A DNA stretch of 64,000 bases, from positions 94,458 to 158,457 of the forward strand of contig JAYPJF010000001.1 of NCBI GenBank assembly GCA_038128225.1, written 5' to 3'. This document shows positions 883 through 39,544 of this stretch, piece after piece (within the stretch, counting starts at the first letter, position 1; every line of letters begins with the position of its first letter). The notes under the pieces were generated by a model. The model searched no databases and was not told the DNA's origin. It was given only the letters and a program-made list of their open reading frames with translations. The stretch comes from a bacterium. Lineage in GTDB: Bacteria > Patescibacteriota > Minisyncoccia > Phycocordibacterales > UBA2100. A program made the translations under genes and the position numbers.

Positions 883-3120
883 ATGAAATTGAGCCCTCTT
901 TTTAATGAGGGACCTCACCCCGGATTCAAGAAAATAAATAGTACACCAACGCGCTATAATCCCCCCATGCTGCCGGTAGATCCTATTGAAAAACATTTCC
1001 GCCTTACCCCCCAGCAGCAGGCGGCGCTTCGCCGCCTTGCAATCGAAACTGTTCACGATCTTCTCTACCATTTCCCTGTGCGCTACGAAAGCGTTAATGA
1101 ATCGAGCACTGTTTCCGCTCTTGCCGTGGGAAATAAAGTCACGCTCTACGGCACCCTCTCAGGACTCAAGGCAAAAAAACTTTGGAAAAGCCGCCGCCCT
1201 GCAACCGAAGGTTGGTTTGAAGACGCTTCAGGCAAAGTGAAAGTGATGTGGTTTAATCAGCCGTACATTGCACGCATGGCCCCTCAAGGCACCATGGTCA
1301 AACTTACCGGCTCAGTCTCGGGAGGCAGCAAACCATACATTACGAATCCAGAGGTCGAAGTGCTCACCGGCGAAATCCCTGATTCACTTTTTACATCCCC
1401 CACAGAAAAAGAAGACACTCCGGTAATTTTTCCTGTATACCCGGAAACCCAAGGCATCACGAGCCGATGGTTTTATCACGCATTCAAACGCGTACATGAT
1501 GGCGGCGTGCTTGAGCATCTTGAAGATCCGCTGCCGGAGTCATTACGCACCCGCTATCACCTCCCCGATATCCACTCCGCGCTCTTGGCGCTCCACGCCC
1601 CGCAAAGCACGCGCTCGGCAGAAGCAGCCCGAAAACGTTTTTCGTTCGAAGAAATCTTTGTGATCCAACTCCACAAACAACAAGAGCGCGCCCGCAATGC
1701 AACACAGCACGCGTTCGAGATTGATGTCGATGAAGCAAGAATCAAAAAATTCATAGCACTCCTCCCTTTCCCGCTCACTGGCGCACAAGAGCGCGCCGTG
1801 AAAGAGATCCTCACCGATTTTGAAAAACTTCACCCTATGGCACGTCTTCTCGAGGGCGATGTCGGGTCGGGAAAGACTGCGGTAGCCGCCATCACCGCAT
1901 ATGCAGCAGTAACATCTCGCCCGAAAGGAAGGGTTTCGGGAACACTCCAGGTAGCCTATATGGCCCCTACAGAGATTTTAGCGACGCAACACTTCCAGTC
2001 ATTTATCGAATTTTTCAAGGAATTGCCGATCAACATCGCGCTCATTACAGGAAGCGGGTGCTATAAGTATCCCTCAAAAATCGACCGAGAAAAACCCACC
2101 ACAATTTCGCGTTCCCAACTACTCAAATGGATTAAAAGCGGAGAAATTGCGATGCTTGTAGGGACGCACGCGCTGGTCCAAAAGACGGTCGCGTTCGAAC
2201 ACTTGGCGTACGTCATCGTCGATGAACAACATCGTTTTGGCACCGCACAGCGCCGCGCGCTCGCGCGCAAAGGTGATTCTGCACCACATTTTCTTTCGAT
2301 GAGCGCGACTCCTATTCCGCGTACGCTTGCCCTTACCATGTACGGCGATCTTGATCTTTCAGTACTCGACGAACTACCAAAAGGGCGCGCCGGTGTCACT
2401 ACCAAAATCATTTCAAAAGAAAAGCGCGCAAGTGCGTACGAAGCGATCCGTGAAGAGCTTAAGAAAGGCCGCCAGGCGTATGTAATCTGCCCGCGTATTG
2501 ACGAACCCGATCCAGAGAAAGCGCTCGCGTTAATAGCGAAGTCTGCAAAAGCTGAAGCAAAACGCCTTCAGCAAGACGTGTTCCCTGAGTTTTCGGTAGG
2601 GCTCATGCACGGCAAGCTCAAGCCGCAGGATAAAGATGCTGTTATGAAAGCGTTTTCCGAAGGTTCGACCAACGTACTCGTTTCCACATCAGTCGTAGAA
2701 GTGGGAGTGAACGTCCCGAATGCGACCGTTATCGCAATCGAGGGCGCTGAGCGATTTGGTCTTGCGCAGCTCCACCAGCTCCGCGGGCGTGTACTAAGAA
2801 GTTCGCACGAGGCTTTTTGTTTTTTGCTACCAGAAACCACGGGAGAATACTCTCGCGCACGGCTCCAGGCTCTTGAAAAAACACGCGACGGATTCGCGCT
2901 CGCGGAAGAAGACCTCAAGCTGCGTGGCGCAGGCGATTTGTATGGAGCAAATCAATGGGGTGTTTCTGACTTGGGCATGGACGCCTTAAAAAACCCTCGC
3001 CTTATTGAAGCTGCCCGAAATGCCGCGCAAGAAACTATTGCACACGATCCAGAACTCACGAAGCATCCGCTCCTCAAAACCGCGGTCGCCGGGCGTGTTC
3101 ACGAACTTCACGAAGAATGA
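883..3120 (+). CDS. recG: ATP-dependent DNA helicase RecG
   Basis: Walker A GDVGSGKTAVAA, DEQHRFG box, and the overall RecG architecture with an N-terminal wedge and helicase core. The true start may be a downstream Met (around 967). Confidence 0.85.
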   Translation: MKLSPLFNEGPHPGFKKINSTPTRYNPPMLPVDPIEKHFRLTPQQQAALRRLAIETVHDLLYHFPVRYESVNESSTVSALAVGNKVTLYGTLSGLKAKKLWKSRRPATEGWFEDASGKVKVMWFNQPYIARMAPQGTMVKLTGSVSGGSKPYITNPEVEVLTGEIPDSLFTSPTEKEDTPVIFPVYPETQGITSRWFYHAFKRVHDGGVLEHLEDPLPESLRTRYHLPDIHSALLALHAPQSTRSAEAARKRFSFEEIFVIQLHKQQERARNATQHAFEIDVDEARIKKFIALLPFPLTGAQERAVKEILTDFEKLHPMARLLEGDVGSGKTAVAAITAYAAVTSRPKGRVSGTLQVAYMAPTEILATQHFQSFIEFFKELPINIALITGSGCYKYPSKIDREKPTTISRSQLLKWIKSGEIAMLVGTHALVQKTVAFEHLAYVIVDEQHRFGTAQRRALARKGDSAPHFLSMSATPIPRTLALTMYGDLDLSVLDELPKGRAGVTTKIISKEKRASAYEAIREELKKGRQAYVICPRIDEPDPEKALALIAKSAKAEAKRLQQDVFPEFSVGLMHGKLKPQDKDAVMKAFSEGSTNVLVSTSVVEVGVNVPNATVIAIEGAERFGLAQLHQLRGRVLRSSHEAFCFLLPETTGEYSRARLQALEKTRDGFALAEEDLKLRGAGDLYGANQWGVSDLGMDALKNPRLIEAARNAAQETIAHDPELTKHPLLKTAVAGRVHELHEE

Positions 3121-4603: not shown

Positions 4604-4676
4604 TCCGCCCCCCTGGACTCGAACCAGGAACCGCAGAGGTATAAGCTCTGTGCTCTAACCATTAAGCTAGGGGCGG
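4604..4676 (-). tRNA. tRNA-Ile, anticodon UAU (decodes AUA)
   Basis: Cloverleaf read by hand on the minus strand. Acceptor CCGCCCC/GGGGCGG (7 bp), U8, D-stem GCTT/GAGC with a GG D-loop. Anticodon stem CAGAG/CTCTG with loop CTTATAC. Variable loop of 5 nt. T-arm CCTGG-TTCGAGT-CCAGG. Discriminator A. CCA is not encoded. Confidence 0.8.
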
Positions 4677-10823: not shown

Positions 10824-11211
10824 GGGGATGATTGGCTTCGACAAAGAGATACGGATCATACATATGCATGGCATAGCTGTGGTATCTATTCAAACTGCCA
10901 CAAACCAATAAGTGCAAACAAAACTGCACGTGGAATCTTGAGCCCAATTCAGGCAAAAGATCTCCAGTTCGCTTACGCATTAGCCTAAGCGACCGCTCGC
11001 CTATCGACATCCGATACATAGTTGCGAACGTCATACTTTCGGGTTCGACAACGCTTCAGTCTGGAAGCGACGTCTAAAGAAACATGACTCGAGTTTGTGC
11101 GATCTTGTGCATTCACAACGCGCAACCTCTAAACCTCTCTGAATGTACTACGCCTTGTAGATAGATGTGTGTTCCCTCTTTTGGACGGGGGTTCAATTCC
11201 CCCCATCTCCA
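10824..11211 (+). ncRNA. ssrA: tmRNA (ssrA), one-piece
   Basis: 5' end GGGGAUGAUUGGCUUCGAC. 3' tRNA-like end GGACGGGGGUUCAAUUCCCCCCAUCUCCA. Acceptor stem 7 bp with G3:U70. Internal tag frame ends ...AKDLQFAYALA then TAA (10986-10988). A terminator hairpin lies at 11228..11256. Located directly after smpB. Confidence 0.8.
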
Positions 11212-11227
11212 CATCAATAGACACGCT

Positions 11228-24976: not shown

Positions 24977-25747
24977 CTATCGAGGATGTGTAAGAATTTC
25001 AGGGCCTTGCGCAGTCACCAGTACTGTATGTTCGACATGCGCCGATTTTGAACCGTCTCGTGTTCGATACGTATACCCATCAGCATCGAGAAAAATTGCT
25101 CCTCGCCCAAGCATAAACATAGGCTCAATCGCAAGCACCATACCTTCAGTAATCTTTGGACCTGTACCGCGCTTCCCGAAATTTGGGATAAAAGGTTCTT
25201 CGTGTACACGCGCACCCACGCTATGTCCCCCAAGTTCGCGCGGGCCATTCAGTTTGTACTGTTTTCCAACAGTCTCAATTGCGTACCCAATATCTCCGAG
25301 CGTGTTACCAACACGTGCCTCAGCAATACCAGCATCGAGCGCCTCGCGCGCGCACTGAAGCAGCCGTTTTTCATCAGGAGCCGCGTTCCCGACAACGAGA
25401 CATACGGCCGCGTCTGTCACCAAACCATCATGCGTTAAACCCATATCGAGCGTGACCACGTCCCCGTCGTTTAGTATCTCTGGGTCTTCGTTGGGAATAC
25501 CATGAACAATCGCATCATTCACGGACACACAGAGAGCCGCAGGGTACGGGCGCCGTGCACCATCAGGCATATAACCAAAAAAAGACGCTTTATCGCCTTG
25601 AGATCCAATAAGTTTTTGCGCTTCTTCTTCGAGAAAGAGTGTGGAGATGCCTGGCTTAACCATCCTTTTTAGCACCGCAAGATACGAACCAAGTCGCGCA
25701 CCCCCTTCTCTGAGCGTTTCGCGCTCTTTTTCCGTCTGCGCGATCAT
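24977..25747 (-). CDS. map: Methionine aminopeptidase, type I
   Basis: HGIPN, DGDVVTLD, HSVGARVHEEP and MVLAIEPM metal-ligand blocks. Confidence 0.85.
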   Translation of the reverse strand: MIAQTEKERETLREGGARLGSYLAVLKRMVKPGISTLFLEEEAQKLIGSQGDKASFFGYMPDGARRPYPAALCVSVNDAIVHGIPNEDPEILNDGDVVTLDMGLTHDGLVTDAAVCLVVGNAAPDEKRLLQCAREALDAGIAEARVGNTLGDIGYAIETVGKQYKLNGPRELGGHSVGARVHEEPFIPNFGKRGTGPKITEGMVLAIEPMFMLGRGAIFLDADGYTYRTRDGSKSAHVEHTVLVTAQGPEILTHPR

Positions 25748-26340
25748 GTAATATGCAACACTGTACGAATCTGAGCGTGAATCTCCTCAATAGGAGGTCT
25801 TGCATCAATATAATGCATAGTGCGCCCCCGCTCTTCAAGAAGTTTTATCGCTGGCAGCGTCTCGGTTTCATACCAATCAAGTCGTCGCTGTATTTTTTGA
25901 TCATCACTATCATCACTACGGCCGCGCCCATGAAGACGCCTAACGGCTTCTTCGCGAGGCAACTGAAGCACGACGACATGATACGGGACTCTTCCAAAAA
26001 ACTGAAGCGCATCGTCAAGCACGATTGACTGCTCAACTCGGCGGGCTACGCCGTCAATGATCAAGTGTTCTCGATTCGTAAACTCCTGCAAAAAGAAGGT
26101 GGTGATGATATGTGAGGGTATGAACGCGGGGAGCAATCCCCCAGCGTTAATCACCTCTCCCACTCGTTTACTCGCGTCTCCCGAACCTGCGGCAAATCCT
26201 CGCAATCGCTCTCCCATTTCGAGTCCGAGCACAGGAGTATCGGAGTCTCTTTCCAAAAGACCTTCAAGGAGTTTCGCCTGCGTGCCTTTACCAGCGCCTT
26301 GCGGCCCGAAGAAAACTACCGTAATTGGAGCATCAATCAT
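25744..26340 (-). CDS. adk: Adenylate kinase
   Basis: P-loop FFGPQGAGKGTQ. The start is refined to MIDAPITVVFF so it does not overlap the gmk-like gene. Confidence 0.8.
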   Translation of the reverse strand: MIDAPITVVFFGPQGAGKGTQAKLLEGLLERDSDTPVLGLEMGERLRGFAAGSGDASKRVGEVINAGGLLPAFIPSHIITTFFLQEFTNREHLIIDGVARRVEQSIVLDDALQFFGRVPYHVVVLQLPREEAVRRLHGRGRSDDSDDQKIQRRLDWYETETLPAIKLLEERGRTMHYIDARPPIEEIHAQIRTVLHIT

Positions 26341-26920
26341 GCCCGTCAATATACCCCTCTTTCTTAAGAATCTCAACCACACTTTTGATGGCCTCATCAA
26401 GTTTTCCTTGCTCGTTTTTAATAACGCGATCATACCAAGGCATGTATTCTTGAATTTCTCGCGTAGCAATTTTCTTGCGCGCTTCCCATTCTTCATCACT
26501 CATGATCTGTCGTGCCCGCACTCGTTTTTCCAATTCCTCCAGTGAGTGTGGCTGAATAAAGAGCGTCAATGCATCGAATTCTTTTTTAAGATACCGCGCG
26601 CCAATAATATCGACTTGCGCAAGGATGGTTTTTCCCTGTGCAAGTAATTCGCGCAAATGAGGCAAATAAATACCGTAGTGAGCGCCCGTTTCGACAAACC
26701 GATGTTCGGGAATTTCTCCTGCATCAAGCGCGTTGAGAAACTCCTCTTCTGTAAAAAATAAGTAGTCTTTCCCCTGCTCTTCCCCGTCTCGCCGCGTTCG
26801 CGTCGTTGCGGTAACCAAGCGCACGCACTGTGAACAGTGCTGCAATACACCTTCAAGAATTGCATTTTTTCCACTTGCAACTGTTCCCGAAATAACCACA
26901 ACTCGTGGCTTAGACTGCAT
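26333..26920 (-). CDS. Guanylate kinase-like paralog 2
   Basis: TATTRTRRDGEEQGKDYLFF, the GMP-binding block. The P-loop ISGTVASGKNA has Lys but Asn in place of Ser/Thr. Confidence 0.65.
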   Translation of the reverse strand: MQSKPRVVVISGTVASGKNAILEGVLQHCSQCVRLVTATTRTRRDGEEQGKDYLFFTEEEFLNALDAGEIPEHRFVETGAHYGIYLPHLRELLAQGKTILAQVDIIGARYLKKEFDALTLFIQPHSLEELEKRVRARQIMSDEEWEARKKIATREIQEYMPWYDRVIKNEQGKLDEAIKSVVEILKKEGYIDGHD

Positions 26921-27491
26921 ACCCCTCTGTACGCAGAATACGGATAATCGCGGTCACGGTGTCGTCAAATTCTCCATCGTCGTTAAATACAATATGATCG
27001 TATTCTTTGTCAGATTCAATGATTTCCTGTGACGCTTGTAAAAGGCGCTTGATGACTTCGTCTTTCTGGATCGTTGGGTCACGCCGCACTAAGCGGTTGT
27101 ATAGAGTAATCATTGATTTCGGCTTGATGAAAATCGTTGTCGCTCTGTACGACTGCTTGAAAAAACGGGCACCGTGCACGTCAGTATTCACAATCACTGT
27201 TTTTTCCGAAGACAATTTCGCCTCGAGGTCAGGCAGGTACGTGCCGTAATGCGCGTCACGGTCTCGAACAAAAACATGTTCAGGAATTGAGCCGTCTTGT
27301 ACATGTTCAAAAAATTGCTCTTTGCTAAAGAAATAATAATCGCGTCCTTCTTGTTCTCCAGGACGCGGCGTTCGAGTAGTTGCAGAAACAGCACGTGTAA
27401 ATTGAGGGTACGCGAGAACAAGCTCGTTGGTAAACGTTGATTCTCCGGAACCCGTTGGACCGGCAAGTACCACCACCCGTTTTCTGCTCAT
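26910..27491 (-). CDS. Guanylate kinase-like paralog 1 (P-loop lysine replaced by Glu)
   Basis: SATTRTPRPGEQEGRDYYFF. The P-loop GPTGSGEST has Glu where the Walker A Lys normally sits. Confidence 0.65.
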   Translation of the reverse strand: MSRKRVVVLAGPTGSGESTFTNELVLAYPQFTRAVSATTRTPRPGEQEGRDYYFFSKEQFFEHVQDGSIPEHVFVRDRDAHYGTYLPDLEAKLSSEKTVIVNTDVHGARFFKQSYRATTIFIKPKSMITLYNRLVRRDPTIQKDEVIKRLLQASQEIIESDKEYDHIVFNDDGEFDDTVTAIIRILRTEGYAV

Positions 27492-28798: not shown

Positions 28799-29242
28799 TT
28801 ATGCAACACTGCCACCCACCTTCTCAATAGCGGTGCGCGCAGCATCTGATACAAGGCACTGTGCCACAGAGATTTTTTTGTCGATCTTTCCCGCAAGAAG
28901 CTTTACTTGTGGTATGCCTCCACCTTTTTGGCGTACAACACCTCGTTCGATTAGCGCACGAGGTGTCACCGTGTCGCCCGCCTCAAAAAGCGCTGCGATA
29001 GCAGTCAGAGACACTGTTTGTGGTCGTGGCCGCAATTCCCACACCGTACGTGCGCGATTTTTACCATGTCCCCGGCGTTTCGGAAGCTTTTTGATGTAAT
29101 CTCGCATTTCCGGACGAATTCGGTGTCCCGCGCGTGCTTTTTGTCCTTTAGTGCCGCGCCCCGAAGTCTTGCCGCGCTTTCCTCCACGTCCTACCCGTTG
29201 TGAGCGCCGTGTTGTTTTTAAAAGTGTATGAAGTCCTGTCAT
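28799..29242 (-). CDS. rplO: 50S ribosomal protein L15
   Basis: GRGGKRGKTSGRGTKGQKARAG motif. Confidence 0.9.
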   Translation of the reverse strand: MTGLHTLLKTTRRSQRVGRGGKRGKTSGRGTKGQKARAGHRIRPEMRDYIKKLPKRRGHGKNRARTVWELRPRPQTVSLTAIAALFEAGDTVTPRALIERGVVRQKGGGIPQVKLLAGKIDKKISVAQCLVSDAARTAIEKVGGSVA

Positions 29243-29820
29243 ATGCGTTTTTCTGAAACCACCTCGAGTGCCTTCATCGCCGCACGGGCATTATTGATTG
29301 GATTGCGGCTTCGAGAAAATAACTTCGCAGTGACATCAGTAACACCGGCAAGTTCGAGTACAGAACGCACCGCGCTTCCTGCCACCAACCCGCGTCCTGG
29401 CGAAGGGCGAATCGCCACCTCTGAAGCACAGTATTTTGCATGCACGTCATACGGCAAACTGCGTGACTTCGTGAGCCGAAGTGTATACATATTCTTCTTT
29501 GCCGCACGTACTGCTTTATCAATCGCCAACGCCGTATCTGCTCCCTTGCCCATTCCGACACCCACGCGCCCTTTCTTGTCACCAATAACTATAGCAACGC
29601 TAAAGTTGAAGCGACGACCGCCAGCCATAACACGCGCGACACGTCGCATACCAATAATTTTCTGAGCAAATTCAGGGCGGCGTTCCGCACGATCACCGCC
29701 TTGGCGGCGCCCACGCCCTCGAAAAGTTCGCTTCTCTGATCGTCCCCCTCGCTCAACAGAGTTTGCCCCTTCTGTTGGCTCAGGTTGTGTGCGTTGTTCT
29801 TGTTCGGTAGTCATGGTCAT
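29239..29820 (-). CDS. rpsE: 30S ribosomal protein S5 (N-terminal extension)
   Basis: RVGVGMGKGADTALAIDKAVRAAKKNM. Overlaps the L15 start directly, so there is no room for L30. Confidence 0.9.
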   Translation of the reverse strand: MTMTTEQEQRTQPEPTEGANSVERGGRSEKRTFRGRGRRQGGDRAERRPEFAQKIIGMRRVARVMAGGRRFNFSVAIVIGDKKGRVGVGMGKGADTALAIDKAVRAAKKNMYTLRLTKSRSLPYDVHAKYCASEVAIRPSPGRGLVAGSAVRSVLELAGVTDVTAKLFSRSRNPINNARAAMKALEVVSEKRI

Positions 29821-30174: not shown

Positions 30175-30720
30175 TTACCCGACAGCTTTTTTACCTTGCT
30201 TGCGGTGAATAACTTCTGTCTCATATCGAATACCCTTCCCTTTGTATGGTTCAGGTTTCTTGAGGGCGCGTACGTTCGCCGCAAACTGGCTCACTTGATC
30301 GCGATCAATTCCTGTAATTGTCATAACACCCTTATCGGTCGCTACGGTGACTCCTTTTGGAATCTCAACTTCAACAGGATGCGAAAAACCAAGCGCAAGC
30401 TGCAATTTTGCCCCTGTCACGTTTGCTTTATACCCAACACCTTCGATTAAGAGCTTCACAACAAAAGGCGTGTTGACACCTGCAATCATGTTTTTGATGT
30501 GCGCAGCGTACGTTCCCCACAACGAGCGCGCGAGCCGAGTCTCTCCTTTCGGCTCCAATCGCACCTCACTTCCCTCCACCGAGACGGCGACGTACGGCCG
30601 AAAATGACGTGTCACCTCTCCGCCTTTTCCTTTTACTGTGACCGAGGCACCCGAGACCGTAACACTCGTACCTGCGGGAATTGCAATATGTTGTTTACCA
30701 ATACGACTCATAGTTACCAA
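30175..30720 (-). CDS. rplF: 50S ribosomal protein L6
   Basis: MSRIGKQHIAIPAGTSVTV. Confidence 0.9.
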   Translation of the reverse strand: MVTMSRIGKQHIAIPAGTSVTVSGASVTVKGKGGEVTRHFRPYVAVSVEGSEVRLEPKGETRLARSLWGTYAAHIKNMIAGVNTPFVVKLLIEGVGYKANVTGAKLQLALGFSHPVEVEIPKGVTVATDKGVMTITGIDRDQVSQFAANVRALKKPEPYKGKGIRYETEVIHRKQGKKAVG

Positions 30721-31106
30721 ATTTCAAACATTGCCTCGCCGCCTACGCGTTCCTTCCGTGCCTCATTGTCAGTTTTGATCCCGCGAGGAGTCGAGAGAAA
30801 TAACATGCCATGACCGTAGTGAACCGGTACAATTTCTCGCACCGTGCGATACAAACGACGGCCTGGTTTTGAGATTCGGCGCACGCCTTTAATTTTGTGC
30901 ACTCCGTTTTCATACGCGAGCGTAACGTCAATGAATTTATGGGTCTTCTTGCCTCGCTTTTCTACGCTTTGAATATACCCCACATCTTTAAGTTTTGAAG
31001 CGATCGCGTGCTTAAGATTTGAAAACGGTATCGAAATCACGGTTTTACCAACCGCGCCGGCGTTTTTCATCTGTATGAGAAAGTCTGCAATAGGATCAGT
31101 TACCAT
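30714..31106 (-). CDS. rpsH: 30S ribosomal protein S8
   Basis: MVTDPIADFLIQMKNA. Confidence 0.9.
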   Translation of the reverse strand: MVTDPIADFLIQMKNAGAVGKTVISIPFSNLKHAIASKLKDVGYIQSVEKRGKKTHKFIDVTLAYENGVHKIKGVRRISKPGRRLYRTVREIVPVHYGHGMLFLSTPRGIKTDNEARKERVGGEAMFEIW

Positions 31107-31110
31107 AGTA

Positions 31111-31296
31111 TTACCAAGAGCTTTTCTTTACACCAGGGATGTTACCTTCAAGCGCCTGTTCACGAAAACAAATGCGGCATAGGTCAAAATCGCGCATATA
31201 CCCACGTGGCCGACCACATTTAAAACAGCGACGAACTACCCGACTTTTAAATTTCGGTGTCCGCTTTGCTTTCGCGATCATTGATTTTTTAGCCAT
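31111..31296 (-). CDS. rpsZ: 30S ribosomal protein S14 (Zn-ribbon type Z)
   Basis: 61 aa, [20 protein letters not shown]. Confidence 0.9.
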
Positions 31297-31537
31297 GTGA
31301 TACGCACGCAGGAGTGGTCTGAAGATGTCTGCATCCCGCCTCTCGGCAATAAGATTACGACAACCTCACCGTGACCCTATTCTCACAGTTTGCCGAGGCA
31401 CTTATGAGATACGGATCCCCTTACGAGCTCGAGCACTATACGCGAAGCGCAAAGCAAAGTCAATTACGCTGTTCTTTGGCTTGAATAATCTATCAACGAT
31501 TGTATAGTGCACGCGGATCAAACTAAAGGAGCGCACT

Positions 31538-32299
31538 GTGGCACTTCTCATACGCATAGGTCTTGGGATACTTATTTTTGCCTTCGCGGGAGTTGTGGTT
31601 GACCAGCTGGCAAATGATGGGAGTATCGCCGCTGCAATCCGTCAATGGCTTCTGTGGATAGGACGAGTGATTTGGCAGTGGATTTTGAGCATTATTGGCT
31701 CAATCTACCGTCCTCTTGCCGTATGGCTCCAAGGCGCAATGAAACGATTCGCCCTGAGACGGCTCTTACAGCCGTTTTGGCGAGCGCTTTGGTATGTGGC
31801 AGCCTACGTTCTCGTACGTCATTGGGGCCAACTAAAGTATGCTGAACGACGAGAGAAAGTGGAAGAGCTCAAACGACGCTTTCTTGGAAAACTCTTTGCG
31901 CTTTGGAGCTACAGGCCGGGATTACCGCGATGGACACGTGCACTCATTGCCATTGGGGCAATTGGCGCGTGCGTATGGTTATTCATCATAATCAATGAAC
32001 GCCTGGGATGGTGGGAGGGGCTTCTGTTCTCTTTCGTTGCCGCATTCGTGGTCGAGAAACTGCCCCTCATCGGCTTCGACCAATTCAGTGCAATCATCAT
32101 GGAGCGGTGGCGCCCGATACGCGCGTGGGCGGATTGGTTTGCAGGAAAATACCCGCGCACCGCATGGTGGATCAGCTGGCTCTGGGCGCGCCCATTCTTC
32201 ATCTGGTTAGGGCGCAAACTTGGCCTCAATGAGAAGTTTGAAGTGGACACCGATGGAGACGGAGTGCGTGACGCGCCCGTTAAGAATAAAGCGGCGTGA
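31538..32299 (+). CDS. Hypothetical Trp-rich membrane protein, encoded on the opposite strand inside the ribosomal protein cluster
   Basis: 253 aa with several transmembrane helices and many Trp/Arg residues. It is followed by a strong bidirectional terminator. Confidence 0.5.
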   Translation: MALLIRIGLGILIFAFAGVVVDQLANDGSIAAAIRQWLLWIGRVIWQWILSIIGSIYRPLAVWLQGAMKRFALRRLLQPFWRALWYVAAYVLVRHWGQLKYAERREKVEELKRRFLGKLFALWSYRPGLPRWTRALIAIGAIGACVWLFIIINERLGWWEGLLFSFVAAFVVEKLPLIGFDQFSAIIMERWRPIRAWADWFAGKYPRTAWWISWLWARPFFIWLGRKLGLNEKFEVDTDGDGVRDAPVKNKAA

Positions 32300-32310
32300 C
32301 GTATCTGAAA

Positions 32311-32346
32311 GCCGCCCCTCACCTCTGAGGGGCGGCGGTTTTTTAG
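32311..32346. terminator. Bidirectional intrinsic terminator between the Trp-rich gene (+) and rplE (-)
   Basis: GCCGCCCCTCA-cctc-TGAGGGGCGGC followed by GGTTTTTT. Confidence 0.7.
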
Positions 32347-32353
32347 GTAAAAA

Positions 32354-32902
32354 TTATTCGGCTTTTTGGAGAGGAAACCCGAGATGCCGAACAAGTGCTT
32401 CTGCCTCTTCTTTTGTTTTCGCAGTCGTCACTACCGTAATTGCAAACCCAAAAACATCACGAAGGTCTTCGTCAGCGGTCTCAGGAAAAATCGTATGCTC
32501 CTTAATACCAACCGAATAATTTCCCATATCATCAAAGGCGGTCGCCTTGAGGCCGCGGAAGTCACGCGTGCGAGGGAGCGCGATATGAATCAGCTTGTCT
32601 ATGAATGCCCACATCCGAGCGCCACGAAGGGTGATTTGATATCCGATAACATCCCCCTCCCGAGTCTTGAACGTAGCAATAGCTTTTTTTGCCGCGCGCT
32701 CTGCGGGTTTTTGCCCTGTAATCAACGCGAGACGGTCCGCGATGAGTGCACGCTTTTTTTGATCGGTAATCTTTCCAATACCGCTCGAAATGACCACTTT
32801 TACCACCTTTGGTGATTGCATCACGTTTTTATATCCAAACTGAGTTTTCAGTGTCTGGTACACGTTTTTTTGCTTTTCTACTGTGATGTTTTGATGATCC
32901 AT
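32354..32902 (-). CDS. rplE: 50S ribosomal protein L5
   Basis: Clear L5 match. Confidence 0.9.
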   Translation of the reverse strand: MDHQNITVEKQKNVYQTLKTQFGYKNVMQSPKVVKVVISSGIGKITDQKKRALIADRLALITGQKPAERAAKKAIATFKTREGDVIGYQITLRGARMWAFIDKLIHIALPRTRDFRGLKATAFDDMGNYSVGIKEHTIFPETADEDLRDVFGFAITVVTTAKTKEEAEALVRHLGFPLQKAE

Positions 32903-35638: not shown

Positions 35639-35986
35639 TTATTTCTTAGCTGCAGCGGTATCGGCAGTCGTCTTTGCTGCTTTTGCTGCGGCAATTTCTG
35701 CCTCTTTTGCCTTAGTCTCAAGTTCTTTCTGCATCTTACCTCCATGGCGCCCGAAACGGGTAGTCGGAGAGAATTCACCTAAACGATGCCCCACCATTTC
35801 TTCGGTCACAAAAACGTCAACAAAATTCTTACCGTTGTGGACACCAAAGGTGTAGCCAACAAACTCCGGTGGAATTTGGCTTCTTCGTGCCCAGGTTTTG
35901 ATAGTGCCCTTACCTGCTTTTGCAGCCAAAACCTTCTTGAGAAGTTTCTCGTCGACGTACGGGCCTTTTTTAAGTGAGCGTGTCAT
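35639..35986 (-). CDS. rpsS: 30S ribosomal protein S19 (Ala/Lys-rich C-terminal extension)
   Basis: The start is refined to [11 protein letters not shown]19 core. Confidence 0.9.
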
Positions 35987-36043
35987 AGCAAAAATGCGCC
36001 AAAGCGCGTGCCGCATAGTATATGAATTTTAAATCGTTGTCAA
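35987..36043 (-). promoter_or_regulatory. Promoter (TTGACA, 17 nt, TACTAT) and a conserved Shine-Dalgarno-less leader abutting the rpsS ATG
   Basis: Minus strand: TTGACA-acgatttaaaattcata-TACTAT-gcggcaCGCGCTTTGGCGCATTTTTGCT-ATG. The 25-nt leader is identical at rpsL. Confidence 0.55.
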
Positions 36044-36111
36044 AGAGTTCCTTAAAATGTCTGTACGGGTGAAAATTGCGAACTAAACTAAACGGTACAT
36101 ACGAAGACCTC

Positions 36112-36147
36112 AGAAATTCAAAACCCCGCTTTCGCGGGGTTTTGATC
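36112..36147 (-). terminator. Intra-operon terminator or attenuator between rplB and rpsS
   Basis: AAACCCCGC-tttc-GCGGGGTTT hairpin followed by TTTTGAATTTCT on the minus strand. Confidence 0.5.
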
Positions 36148-36996
36148 TTACTGTTTTTTTCGTTTGCCTACTTTACGACGTGACACAATAAACACGTTGG
36201 AATATTTCTTAGGAGTCCGGGTCTTTTGTCCTTTGCCCGTTGGCTTGCCCCACATTGATTTTGCACGGCGCAACCCACGTCCTTGACGCCCTTCACCACC
36301 ACCATGAGGGTGATCAACCGGGTTCATTACTGAACCACGTACCGTCGGACGAATACCCATCTTCCGTGAACGACCTGCCTTACCAATATTGACCAATCGA
36401 TGTTCCGGATTTGAAACTTCACCAATCGATGCCCAACACGTATCGAGTACTCTGCGCACTTCGCTTGAAGGCATTTTAAGATGCGTGTACCCGTCGTCTT
36501 GCGCAATCACTTCGGCGAAGACTCCAGCTGAGCGTGCTACCTTCGCACCTCCGCGCGGCTTAATTTCAATATTGTACACAAAGGTACCAATCGGAATATT
36601 TTTAAGAAGCGCTCGATTACCAACCACGACAGGTGCGCTTTCGTGCGTCAAAATTTCCGTACCCACAACAACCGATCGCGGAAGCAGCACGTAGCGGCGC
36701 TCGCCATCGCGATAGGCAACAAGTCCAATATATCCTGAACGATTCGGGTCGTATTCGACTGTTTTCACAATTGCAGGCACTCCTGTTTTACCGTAGACGA
36801 AATCAATAGTGCGATACAAACGCTTGACCCCACCCCCTTTGTGTCGCGTTGTAATACGCCCTGCGCTATTGCGCCCAACTGCGCGTTTAAACCCACCTGT
36901 AAGCGCCTTTACCGGGCGCTCGGCTGTCACTACGTGTTCGTATGAAATACGAGACATCTGGCGGCGGCTTTTGGTATATGGACGAAATGTTTTCAT
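36148..36996 (-). CDS. rplB: 50S ribosomal protein L2
   Basis: HPHGGGEGR motif. Confidence 0.92.
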   Translation of the reverse strand: MKTFRPYTKSRRQMSRISYEHVVTAERPVKALTGGFKRAVGRNSAGRITTRHKGGGVKRLYRTIDFVYGKTGVPAIVKTVEYDPNRSGYIGLVAYRDGERRYVLLPRSVVVGTEILTHESAPVVVGNRALLKNIPIGTFVYNIEIKPRGGAKVARSAGVFAEVIAQDDGYTHLKMPSSEVRRVLDTCWASIGEVSNPEHRLVNIGKAGRSRKMGIRPTVRGSVMNPVDHPHGGGEGRQGRGLRRAKSMWGKPTGKGQKTRTPKKYSNVFIVSRRKVGKRKKQ

Positions 36997-38011: not shown

Positions 38012-38623
38012 CTATGCTGCTGAAATTTCTACCAATGTCCCCGGGCGCCCTGGTACCGCTCCTGAAATAACAAGCGTGCCTGTATCAGTGTTTACTTGAA
38101 GCACCTGGAGGTTTCTCACGGTTACACGATCCCCACCCATGCGACCCGCCATGCGCATCCCCTTAATAACACGTCCGCCTGCGCGACCACCGCCCCCGAT
38201 TGAACCAGGTGCGCGTTCTGAGTGCTTGCGACCATGTGAGCGCATGTCTCCGCTGAACCCATGTCGCTTTACGACACCTTGGAAACCTTTCGCTTTTGAA
38301 ACCGCTGACACGCTAACCATGTCGCCTGGCGTGAACACAGAAAGATCCACTACCTGTCCACGGGTAAACGCTTCTGTTGTCTGTACTTCCTTAAGCGCAC
38401 GAAATACTCCGAGTTCTTTTGTGTGTCCCCGTTCAGGTTTGGTGCTATGTTTTTCTTTTTTATTTCCAAACCCAAGCTGCACTGCCTGGTACCCGTCGCT
38501 TTCCTGTGTTTTGAGCTGAGTTACGGTAAGCGGTCCTGCAGTAATGATCGTCGCAGCACGAACGTTGCCTTCTGCGTCAAAGATTTGTGTCATCGCCCCT
38601 TTGATACCGATCATGAATTTCAT
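38012..38623 (-). CDS. rplC: 50S ribosomal protein L3
   Basis: The start is refined to MKFMIGIKGAMTQIF. An upstream promoter (TTGCAA, 16 nt, TATAGT) sits at 38691..38718. Confidence 0.9.
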   Translation of the reverse strand: MKFMIGIKGAMTQIFDAEGNVRAATIITAGPLTVTQLKTQESDGYQAVQLGFGNKKEKHSTKPERGHTKELGVFRALKEVQTTEAFTRGQVVDLSVFTPGDMVSVSAVSKAKGFQGVVKRHGFSGDMRSHGRKHSERAPGSIGGGGRAGGRVIKGMRMAGRMGGDRVTVRNLQVLQVNTDTGTLVISGAVPGRPGTLVEISAA

Positions 38624-38690
38624 ATAAAAATTGCGCCAAACAACAATGGCGCCATGGCCATTGGTCCCTCCTGGGACGTAGCGTGCAGGC

Positions 38691-38718
38691 ACTATACACA
38701 AAGATTTTTAGATTGCAA
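38691..38718 (-). promoter_or_regulatory. Sigma70-like promoter for rplC
   Basis: TTGCAA, 16 nt, TATAGT on the minus strand, inside what the ORF track shows as the long 5' extension of L3. Confidence 0.5.
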
Positions 38719-38721
38719 GTT

Positions 38722-39096
38722 TCACTGCCGTGAGAGCGCCCCGCCTTGTTCCATTTTGCGATATATGAAATACCCGAGCGCGAGAACTATTAGCACCAAA
38801 ACACCCAGTGCAATAGAGTGCCCCCCGCGAGATTGTTCTTGAGGCACCTCCGATTCAACAAACCCATCATTACTCTCAAACTCGGGCGTAGCAACCGATT
38901 CAGTAATACGTTCAGGCGTAATACCTGCCTCAACTGATTTTTTTGTAAGAGAAGCGACGAGTGTGTCAAAATCTCCCTGCGACAACCCCTCTGTGGTCGC
39001 CTGTTCTTGAAGGGCAGCGCGAATCTCAGCAGCTACACTGGCTTCTTGCGCGTAAACCGGCACCGCAATCACTAAAAACAAAAACGCAATGATCAT
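38722..39096 (-). CDS. Hypothetical small secreted/membrane-anchored protein inserted between rpsJ and rplC
   Basis: N-terminal signal/transmembrane segment MIIAFLFLVIAVPVYA, an acidic middle region, and a C-terminal transmembrane segment LGVLVLIVLALGYFIY. Confidence 0.5.
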   Translation of the reverse strand: MIIAFLFLVIAVPVYAQEASVAAEIRAALQEQATTEGLSQGDFDTLVASLTKKSVEAGITPERITESVATPEFESNDGFVESEVPQEQSRGGHSIALGVLVLIVLALGYFIYRKMEQGGALSRQ

Positions 39097-39190
39097 GCGG
39101 GAAGTATACCGCACGCGCGATCCATAACATCCCCTTATCAACAAAACCCGCTTGCGGGCGGGTTTTGTTGCGTTTCCTCAAGGAAACACT

Positions 39191-39544
39191 TTACATCATT
39201 TTTACGTCAATATTGACTCCTGAAGGCAAATCAATGTTTGTAAGTGCCTCAATGATCTTCGGTTCAGGATTCATGATGTCGATCATCCGTTTGTGAACTC
39301 TCATTTCGAATTGTTCTCGCGCGTCCTTGTGGACGAATGTCGAACGGTTCACGGTGTATTTACGGATATCAATGGGGAGCGGTACAGGTCCAACCACTTT
39401 CGCATTGAAGCGTACAGCGGTGTCCATGATTTGTTTGACTGCGTTATCAAGCACGCGATGTTCATATGCGCGTACGCGTATACGAAGCCGTCCTTGGGCA
39501 TCAGTCTTTTTTGTCCGCTTTGAAGCTGTCATAGTACAAGCCAC
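39191..39544 (-). CDS. rpsJ: 30S ribosomal protein S10
   Basis: RLRIRVRAYEHRVLDNAVKQIMDTAVRFNAKVVGPVPLP. Confidence 0.9.
   Translation of the reverse strand: MACTMTASKRTKKTDAQGRLRIRVRAYEHRVLDNAVKQIMDTAVRFNAKVVGPVPLPIDIRKYTVNRSTFVHKDAREQFEMRVHKRMIDIMNPEPKIIEALTNIDLPSGVNIDVKMM

Follow-up and report, generated by a model that had tools for sequence, protein, structure and literature searches.

The S10-spc-alpha series is the most conserved gene order in prokaryotes, and it underlies both the control of ribosomal protein (r-protein) stoichiometry and the phylogenomic marker sets used for genomes of the Candidate Phyla Radiation (CPR). Here we analyze a departure from this order in a 64,000-nucleotide stretch of contig JAYPJF010000001.1 from a patescibacterium, which we refer to as the window. 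In the window, the genes rplE (encoding L5) and rpsZ (encoding S14) are separated by an open reading frame (ORF) on the opposite strand, a hairpin, a promoter and a structured 5′ leader upstream of rpsZ.

In Escherichia coli, S8 represses the spc operon by translational feedback, in which it binds an mRNA structure that mimics helix 21 of the 16S rRNA (Cerretti et al. 1988, Merianos et al. 2004; as summarized in PMC4176348 and PMC3616713). According to the summary in PMC3616713, this site overlaps the start of rplE within an unbroken operon, and the S8-binding RNA has a narrow distribution, in Gammaproteobacteria. The features recognized by S8 are two triples, A595-(A596-U644) and (G597-C643)-U641, and the invariant A642, and selection by SELEX tolerates isosteric combinations at positions 597, 643 and 641 (PMC4176348). 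Insertions of multiple genes into the translation cluster lie, according to Brandis et al. 2019 (PMC6735719) and PMC8046335, between the concatenated str, S10, spc and alpha operons. Structured leaders upstream of r-protein genes have been collected by Eckert & Weinberg 2020 (PMC7247131), a paper that does not mention Parcubacteria or candidate phyla and in which S14 occurs only in an unrelated context. In our literature search, we found no description of a clade-wide L5|S14 break inside spc in CPR/Patescibacteria, of a variable gene slot at L5|S14, or of promoter-proximal rpsZ leaders with an S8-type loop.

The r-protein genes of the window lie on the minus strand in the order tuf-S10-L3-L4-L23-L2-S19-L22-S3-L16-L29-S17-L14-L24-L5 ... 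S14-S8-L6-L18-S5-L15-SecY. From L2 to SecY, 13 of 16 junctions are tight (-7 to +4 nt), and the others are L29|S17 (15 nt), L2|S19 (161 nt) and L5|S14 (1,057 nt). The proximal block S19...L24-L5 ends with rplE (32354..32902, minus strand; Pfam Ribosomal_L5, E=3e-14, and L5_C, E=8e-32), which is spaced 3 nt from the L24 gene. The distal block begins with rpsZ (31111..31296, minus strand; Pfam Ribosomal_S14, E=3.6e-24), which encodes a 61-aa S14 of the zinc-ribbon type. It is followed after 4 nt by rpsH (30714..31106, minus strand), the second gene of the rpsZ unit, which encodes S8, the candidate repressor acting on the leader; tblastn finds rpsH orthologues in all related loci that cover the region. 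The locus is thus not a canonical contiguous spc operon (L14-L24-L5-S14-S8-L6-L18-S5-L30-L15-SecY), given that a hairpin, a promoter and a gene on the other strand occupy the L5|S14 gap. The same arrangement of L5, ORF and S14 recurs on a contig from another sample (L002; related loci are numbered in this manner throughout) and on an independent 4-kb contig (L001), whose S14 is 100% identical in amino acid sequence to that of the window, and the split is therefore not an assembly artefact. Data sets with the arrangement are DRR685536 and, at 72% identity, SRR24236059. The coordinates and description of this region in an earlier reading of the sequence, hereafter the original prediction, were correct on re-analysis.

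The original prediction also took L5 and S14 to be neighbours in nearly every bacterium, which is a general rule that fails in this clade. The organism belongs to the Paceibacteria/Parcubacteria group of the CPR, and its best L5 relatives, at no more than 70% identity, are metagenome-assembled genomes of the Kaiser-, Nomura-, Taylor- and Vogelbacteria type. We compared 80 species-representative loci with a related L5, of which 57 have both L5 and S14 in reach. The L5|S14 gap exceeds 100 nt in 54 of these 57 loci and 400 nt in 45, with a median of 820 nt and a maximum of 3,927 nt. The two genes are contiguous (7-12 nt apart) in just three loci, L072, L081 and L082, which are the most distant ones. 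For 23 further loci, S14 was not found in the flank after L5, which extends for 4 kb in about half of them and is shorter, because of a contig end, in the rest. As an internal control, the other junctions from S19 to SecY have median gaps of -43 to +69 nt in the same loci. The L2|S19 junction also appears open in relatives (median 301 nt, more than 100 nt in 10 of 13), although few loci reach that far.

The contents of the gap are highly variable, with 135 of 170 gap ORFs being singletons. Matches to Pfam comprise extracytoplasmic function (ECF) sigma factors (5-6 loci), PIF1 helicase, TruD, holin, NADAR, thioredoxin, reverse transcriptase, SocA antitoxin and a major facilitator superfamily transporter. 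About a dozen gaps (182-1,557 nt) lack any ORF of at least 60 aa, and in L093 a promoter and leader of the window type occur in a 226-nt gap without cargo. One type of cargo is recurrent, namely an ECF-type sigma factor (Sigma70_r2/r4) after L5 in L020, L023, L036, L039, L051, L055 and L066. Four of these loci have a second shared gene behind it, and DUF5667 is among the Pfam matches, which suggests a possible anti-sigma partner.

Candidate transcription signals also flank the break in relatives. With a stricter scan, which looks for a perfect-stem hairpin and a T-tract within 100 nt after rplE, we detected terminators in 31 of 76 relatives, versus 2.7 +/- 1.5 in shuffled sequences (roughly 40% versus 3.6%). 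An upstream A-tract, as in the symmetric, bidirectional form of terminator, is also present in 22 of the 31, and inspection by eye indicates that the true number of terminators after rplE exceeds the scan's count. Upstream of S14, promoters scoring at least 10/12 (with at least 5/6 in the -35 element) were found in 29 of 56 relatives, versus 0.8 +/- 1.0 in shuffles.

Because the break is common to nearly all relatives and contains unrelated cargo or none, the ORF appears to have landed in a boundary that already existed. We therefore regard it as most likely that the L5|S14 break is ancestral in the clade and predates the ORF, which occupies a pre-existing slot. The original prediction described an operon interrupted by a membrane gene, but with a gap in 54 of 57 relatives and with L093 lacking cargo behind the same leader, the history is likely the reverse. 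The synteny comparison that it suggested has two outcomes: the ORF is retained in place in L001, but the break itself is clade-wide and independent of cargo. As with the insertions around str, S10, spc and alpha, foreign genes gather here at transcription-unit boundaries of a rigid translation cluster (PMC6735719 and PMC8046335). Unlike those inter-operon insertions, the present boundary is inside spc, is fixed in the clade and has its own promoter and leader.

The ORF in the window (31538..32299, plus strand; which we call ORFX) has a GTG start codon and 253 codons, and its predicted product is a Trp-rich, all-helical membrane protein of an unannotated family, with 21 Trp among 253 residues (8.3%) and 3-5 hydrophobic helices. 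A Shine-Dalgarno-like sequence, AAAGGAG (31525..31531, plus strand), lies 7 nt upstream of the start, and AAAGGA is retained in L001. The length of the ORF is not evidence in itself, because a 317-aa antisense ORF occurs opposite S3/L22 in the window. L001, however, carries a 72%-identical orthologue between S14 and L5 in the same orientation. Between these two sequences, the proportion of nonsynonymous differences (pN) is 0.18 and that of synonymous differences (pS) is 0.78, with synonymous sites saturated, so that pN/pS is about 0.23; for comparison, pN is 0.08 for S8 and 0.05 for L5. Apart from the ORF itself, a word-indexed search of 5.8 billion protein clusters matched a single protein, with 72% identity. 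When 1.84 billion representatives (50% clustering) were searched exhaustively with HMMER, the result was 14 family members of 190-272 aa with 25-41% identity, and conserved motifs of the family are RQW, RPxxPRWxRA, VEKLPLIGFD, ERWxPI and WISWLW. Given the synteny of the orthologue, a pN far below pS and the existence of family representatives, the ORF is, by these sequence criteria, a real gene under purifying selection. The original prediction of a membrane-protein gene on the opposite strand is therefore borne out, including its conservation at the same place and in the same orientation in L001.

Distant members of the ORF family (L086, L087-L089) occur in ordinary, non-ribosomal neighbourhoods, so the family is not tied to the ribosomal cluster. 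No Pfam or NCBIfam family matches the ORF, and the best E-value in a sequence-profile search of PDB was 0.23. A PHROG search with the 14 family members gave a single match, at 0.005 and in 1 of the 14, and no annotation for the ORF. AlphaFold2, given the 14-sequence alignment, produced an all-helical model with a predicted local distance difference test score of 69.8 and a predicted template modelling score of 0.33, which is too weak for the fold to be trusted; searching PDB with this low-confidence model using Foldseek gave a best E-value of 1.6, which is meaningless. The inserted gene is thus an unannotated orphan, and no function can be inferred from its sequence or from the low-confidence model. 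As to signs of a mobile element at the ORF, flanking repeats are only 10-13 nt, which is the chance level, and no mobile-element genes were found.

According to the original prediction, the block rpsZ-rpsH-rplF-rplR-rpsE-rplO-secY needs its own promoter within 31297..31537, and a candidate does lie there, on the minus strand: TTGACT-17-TATAGT (31463..31435; -35 at 31463..31458, -10 at 31440..31435), scoring 10/12. Its hexamers and 17-nt spacing are present at the same position in five lineages, i.e., the window, L001, L004, L048 and L093, and the L5 proteins of the last three are only 60-69% identical to that of the window. In the intergenic alignment of the window with L001, an invariant 32-nt block plus AAGTCAA occurs amid saturated neutral divergence, and these conserved positions correspond to the minus-strand promoter and the first 18 nt of the predicted transcript. 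Since synonymous sites are saturated between the two sequences, this alignment indicates that the rpsZ promoter is conserved beyond neutral expectation. A candidate promoter for the ORF, TTGAAT-16-TATAGT (31481..31508, plus strand; 9/12), stands back-to-back with the rpsZ promoter, and its -10 element is kept as TACAGT in L001. The -10/discriminator regions, TATAGTGCACG for the ORF and TATAGTGCTCG for rpsZ, are inverted copies (inverted repeat TATAGTGCNCG). Two small intergenic ORFs, 31325..31507 (plus strand) and 31402..31557 (minus strand), were rejected as genes because the alignment of the window with L001 carries indels of 1, 2, 5 and 8 nt.

The convergent ORF and rplE share a GC-rich hairpin, GCCGCCCCTCA-CCTC-TGAGGGGCGGC (32311..32336, both strands), located 11 nt past the ORF's stop codon and 17 nt past that of rplE. 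Its stem of 11 bp, 9 of them G-C, carries a 4-nt loop. The predicted free energies are -30.2 kcal/mol (plus strand) and -25.9 kcal/mol (minus strand), with z of -4.8 and -4.4, and no equally stable fold arose in 200 shuffles. A U6 tract serving the ORF comes after the stem on the plus strand (GGTTTTTTAGG, 32337..32347). The tail, GGUUUUUU / GGTTTTTT, has the at least 5 U in 8 that are expected of an intrinsic terminator, and both the terminator scan and the stricter scan call the plus strand only. On the minus strand, the tail is UUUCAGAU, with just 3 U (32310..32303 is TTTCAGAT), and neither the terminator scan nor the stricter perfect-stem scan calls an intrinsic terminator after rplE. L001 has a hairpin of different sequence at the equivalent place (GAAGCCGCCC...GGGCGGCUUC), with weak tails on both sides.

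By these sequence features, the hairpin has the canonical form of an intrinsic terminator in one direction only, that of the ORF, and it probably serves the rplE transcript by partial termination or 3′ stabilization. Any termination after rplE may be weak or dependent on a factor. As in bidirectional terminators of convergent genes, a GC-rich hairpin is shared and an A-tract on one side complements a U-tract on the other; unlike them, the element in the window is asymmetric, with U6 for the ORF versus U3 for rplE. The original prediction of a strong bidirectional terminator is therefore overstated: the hairpin is strong and canonical for the ORF, but a bidirectional function is unproven, because only three U follow the hairpin on the rplE side.

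The predicted rpsZ transcript begins with a leader of about 138 nt (31434..31297, minus strand). In the five-lineage alignment, this leader has an invariant 5′ block, GCUCGAGCUCGUAAGGGG, and two hairpins on the minus strand: P1 (31373..31418), and P2 (31321..31367), in which the internal loop, UAA / UGC, is invariant and the terminal loop is a GNRA tetraloop. Among the five lineages, 86.6% of cells are paired, versus 36-54% when the 3′ partners are slid, double-sided changes occur in 19 pairs versus 3-8 in the slid controls, and none of 500 column shuffles reached the structure score. A covariance model (R1) scores 118 bits on the window's leader; when used to search 85 sources, it revealed no window-type leader beyond the known lineages. 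A scan of metagenomes with a degenerate leader pattern added L093 as the one genuine new relative; of the remaining matches, L091 duplicates L048, and L090 and L092 are weak and have no r-protein genes nearby. The leader is like the r-protein leaders of Rfam (PMC7247131) in that it is a conserved, structured 5′ untranslated region before r-protein genes and a likely rRNA mimic, but unlike them it matches none of the 4,227 families of Rfam 15 at gathering score, either in the window or in 18 related loci; with E-values up to 10 allowed, 31200..32450 yields three noise matches only.

The apex of P1, 5'-CUCAU-A-AG-UGC-CUCG-GCA-AA-CU-GUGAG-3' (31408..31382), resembles the S8 site of 16S helix 21, which in E. 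coli is 5'-GUU-A-AG-UCAG...CUGA-UA-CU-GGC-3' (verified in 5,426 E. coli genomes). The equivalent positions are A595=31403, G597=31401, A642=31389, C643=31388 and U644=31387, and the leader in the window has A595, A596-U644, G597-C643, A642 and the U594-G645 wobble as in E. coli. The asymmetric loop A595-(A596-U644) with G597-C643 is preserved in the window, L001, L004 and L048. G597, A642, C643 and U644 are invariant in all five leaders, and the 598-640 pair covaries, being U-A twice and A-U three times.

This resembles the E. coli spc system in that an mRNA encoding S8 (here, the leader of rpsZ-rpsH) contains a helix broken by a loop of the helix 21 type, and in that the downstream genes are packed as tightly (-7 to +4 nt) as translational coupling requires. 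Unlike in E. coli, the putative site is part of a 5′ leader that follows a promoter, and about 90 nt separate it from rpsZ downstream; rplE is outside of the regulated unit, position 641 is A and not U, and there is no Rfam match. Because of the distance to the rpsZ AUG, simple occlusion of the start site, which is the E. coli mode, is excluded here. The start region of rpsZ has no Shine-Dalgarno sequence. In the minimum free energy fold of the single sequence, a long-range helix between 5′ GCUCGUAAGGG and 3′ CUCCUGCGUGC, beside the AUG, closes the leader; this helix was not recovered by RNAalifold and has no covariation support. We predict that feedback by S8 is the most likely function of the rpsZ leader, and we favor this function by a modest degree.

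Other types of rpsZ leader occupy the same genomic position in sister lineages. A loop like that of helix 21 is found in type B (L007, L008, L010, L011 and L016), as GGCAAGUCAUC...GAUGAUACUGCC, and in type C (L054, L057, L063, L069, L070 and L071), as GUUAGGUGCC...GGCAAACCGGC, with G596-C644 and the tandem U-G pairs of helix 21. The scaffolds of types B and C are different. In type C, a hairpin that resembles a terminator, GAGCCCAUCAGGGCUC, with U6, comes immediately after the promoter (TTGACT-17-TATATT), and the loop comes next. The type C leader could be an S8-dependent attenuator.

Type A leaders are located 40-120 nt upstream of S14 in L020, L024, L026, L033, L035, L036, L038, L039, L040, L043, L047, L049, L050, L052, L055, L061, L062, L066 and L079. 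Their promoter, TTGAC-N17-TGCTAGTAT, is followed by a hairpin, ACCUC...GAGG, and they have an invariant stem consisting of GAUUGG-A-AGC, a variable hairpin and GCU-AA-CCAAUC (core GAUUGGAAGC...GCUAACCAAUC), and then a U-rich tract. Because a stem is followed by a U-rich tract, the type A leader looks like an attenuator. Its core has no Rfam match and shows no covariation, since both strands of the stem are invariant. We tentatively suggest, at a little under even confidence, that the break is an ancient, clade-defining feature of a large Paceibacteria radiation and an insertion hotspot, that the distal half is controlled by several leader RNAs unrelated in structure, that at least three of these scaffolds (the window type, B and C) have converged on mimicry of helix 21, and that type A is a fourth, invariant scaffold.

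The clade that carries the split has both types of S14. We called a long (non-zinc) S14 where the tblastn match begins at query residue 11-19, which is the case for L006, L009, L013, L017, L018, L019, L021, L022, L030, L037, L044 and L080. In relatives with the long S14, the leader is short and reads TTGACAGCC-...-TGATAGATT/TGATACATT, with a GGCUCCCCGGAGC hairpin after it that directly precedes the AUG. The 61-aa S14 is mishandled by gene callers: in L001 it is called as 108 aa (2334..2660), stretched through the leader, and in L002 (2577..2759) it is uncalled, yet intact by tblastn. The finding is also of practical value for annotation at this locus, where one caller misses S14 and another over-extends it into the leader.

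Taken together, we consider the best explanation, and a probable one, to be that the cluster has a partitioned architecture combined with S8 feedback. The architecture itself, comprising an ancestral split, a real ORF and a separate promoter and leader for rpsZ, is something in which we have high confidence. The sequences themselves show the split, its spread through the clade, its changing cargo and the conservation of the ORF, promoter, leader structure and hairpin, whereas promoter activity, the efficiency of termination, and S8 binding with its effect are inferences. On this explanation, the rplE|rpsZ junction is an old transcription-unit boundary inside the spc cluster, as opposed to a recent accident, that has turned into a permissive slot in which unrelated accessory genes come and go across the clade. 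In the lineage of the window, the slot would hold one independently expressed gene on the opposite strand, with its own sigma70-like promoter, Shine-Dalgarno sequence and terminator. The rplE transcript would be ended or stabilized by the hairpin 17 nt past its stop codon, and termination there would be inefficient because only 3 U follow the hairpin in that direction. The distal block, rpsZ-rpsH-rplF-rplR-rpsE-rplO-secY, would be driven by the conserved promoter and transcribed with the structured leader of about 138 nt. By analogy with E. coli spc, surplus S8 would bind the copy of the helix 21 internal loop at the apex of P1 and repress the rpsZ unit, possibly by stabilizing a fold of the leader that closes over the rpsZ start region. 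Because the operon is split at rplE|rpsZ, the S8 feedback site would have moved from the start of rplE to the 5′ untranslated region of rpsZ.

It is important to consider other explanations of these observations. It might be that the cluster is still one operon, in which transcription reads through the hairpin past rplE, continues antisense across the ORF and enters rpsZ, such that the internal promoter is supplementary and the hairpin is mainly the ORF's terminator and a 3′ stabilizer of processed mRNA. The tail on the rplE side, with its 3 U and no call by either scan, fits this idea, and the corresponding tail in L001 (UUGCGUGC) is weaker still. However, the hairpin 17 nt past the rplE stop codon is GC-rich and very stable also in the rplE direction, canonical terminators are found at this place in relatives far more often than in shuffles, and a strongly conserved promoter and leader precede rpsZ. 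Moreover, polymerases reading through would run head-on into those transcribing the convergent ORF, on which purifying selection acts. We thus consider a single operon unlikely. It is far less likely still that the ORF is spurious, or is a mobile or selfish gene that recently disrupted an intact operon, as the original prediction implied. The family is rare and patchy, with its 14 representatives at 50% clustering, and its other genomic contexts are consistent with horizontal movement. However, a spurious ORF is difficult to reconcile with a pN/pS of about 0.23 and with synteny that is kept at 72% identity, and disruption is largely refuted by a break that is present whatever the cargo, including no cargo, and at which neither flanking repeats above chance length nor mobile-element genes were found.

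The least secure element is the ligand of the leader. A number of observations weigh against S8. The pattern of the helix 21 loop has 4 matches in the 64-kb window, which is the chance level, and its enrichment in S14 leaders is modest (11 versus 4.3 +/- 2.0, and 9 versus 4.1). Going by density, the number of chance matches expected in the 130-nt leader is about 0.004. Position 641, which is A in the window, is A, G, U, G and U across the five leaders, and A596 is kept in four of them, with L093 having C, which breaks the 596-644 pair. The loop is too far upstream to overlap the start codon or ribosome binding site of rpsZ, so that no repression mechanism readily suggests itself. The five sequences used to test the leader structure are also those from which it was built, and type A, which is the largest leader class (19 of 57 loci), has no clear S8 loop. 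Additionally, the nucleotides of the P2 loop are invariant in all five leaders, and it could be at this loop, by way of a different protein, that regulation really takes place. The leader might accordingly respond to S14, L6, L18, S5 or L15 bound at the P2 loop, or merely stabilize the mRNA, in which case the similarity to helix 21 would be coincidental. However, we judge this to be fairly unlikely, if somewhat less so than a single operon. The loop belongs to the S8-encoding mRNA, four of five leaders retain it with a covarying flanking pair, and it recurs at the same position in two unrelated scaffolds, with some instances being near-identical to E. coli helix 21, including its tandem U-G pairs. 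Because the motif is too short for pattern statistics, the case for an S8 loop is based on its position, its conservation and its recurrence in different scaffolds.

Other features of the window were noted in the course of this analysis. The r-protein cluster has a second break on the minus strand (36017..36147), between rplB (36148..36996) and rpsS (35639..35986), in which a canonical symmetric terminator, AAAACCCCGC-GAAA-GCGGGGTTTT (36145..36118), follows L2 and a promoter, TTGACA-17-TACTAT (36043..36015), precedes S19. A third interruption is a 140-aa ORF on the same strand (38722..39144, minus) between rpsJ (39191..39544) and rplC (38012..38701), whose product has an N-terminal signal or transmembrane segment, MIIAFLFLVIAVPVYAQE, and a C-terminal transmembrane segment; the start codon of the L3 ORF is probably an internal ATG (MKFMIGIKG...). 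Between rpsE and rplO (28799..29820), which overlap by 4 nt, rpmD (L30) is missing. L30 is reported to be absent from CPR bacteria, and the arrangement here agrees with this. Adenylate kinase and methionine aminopeptidase genes normally come directly after secY. In the window, two tandem guanylate-kinase paralogues downstream of secY (26910..27491 and 26333..26920, minus strand; Pfam E=8e-30 and 8e-28) precede an adenylate-kinase-like gene and a methionine aminopeptidase gene (region 25744..27491, minus strand). The only Rfam matches at gathering level in the 64-kb window are a transfer-messenger RNA (10824..11214, plus strand, 113 bits) and a tRNA (4604..4676, minus strand), and the Rfam scan found no 16S rRNA gene in it.

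The individual parts of the locus are all of known kinds, namely an intrinsic terminator, sigma70-type promoters, an r-protein leader that mimics rRNA, and insertions at operon borders. The part that merits follow-up is the re-partitioning of an operon at the level of a clade, together with the candidate S8 leaders. It shows that the cluster can be divided into smaller units in reduced genomes, and it can serve as a natural experiment in the rewiring of S8 feedback once its classical target, the start of rplE, is separated from the genes it controls. The leaders add candidate r-protein leader RNAs in a phylum whose regulation has hardly been characterized. Finally, the junction is a predictable place to look in Paceibacteria for accessory genes specific to a lineage, among them genes for orphan membrane proteins of possible relevance to an episymbiotic lifestyle.

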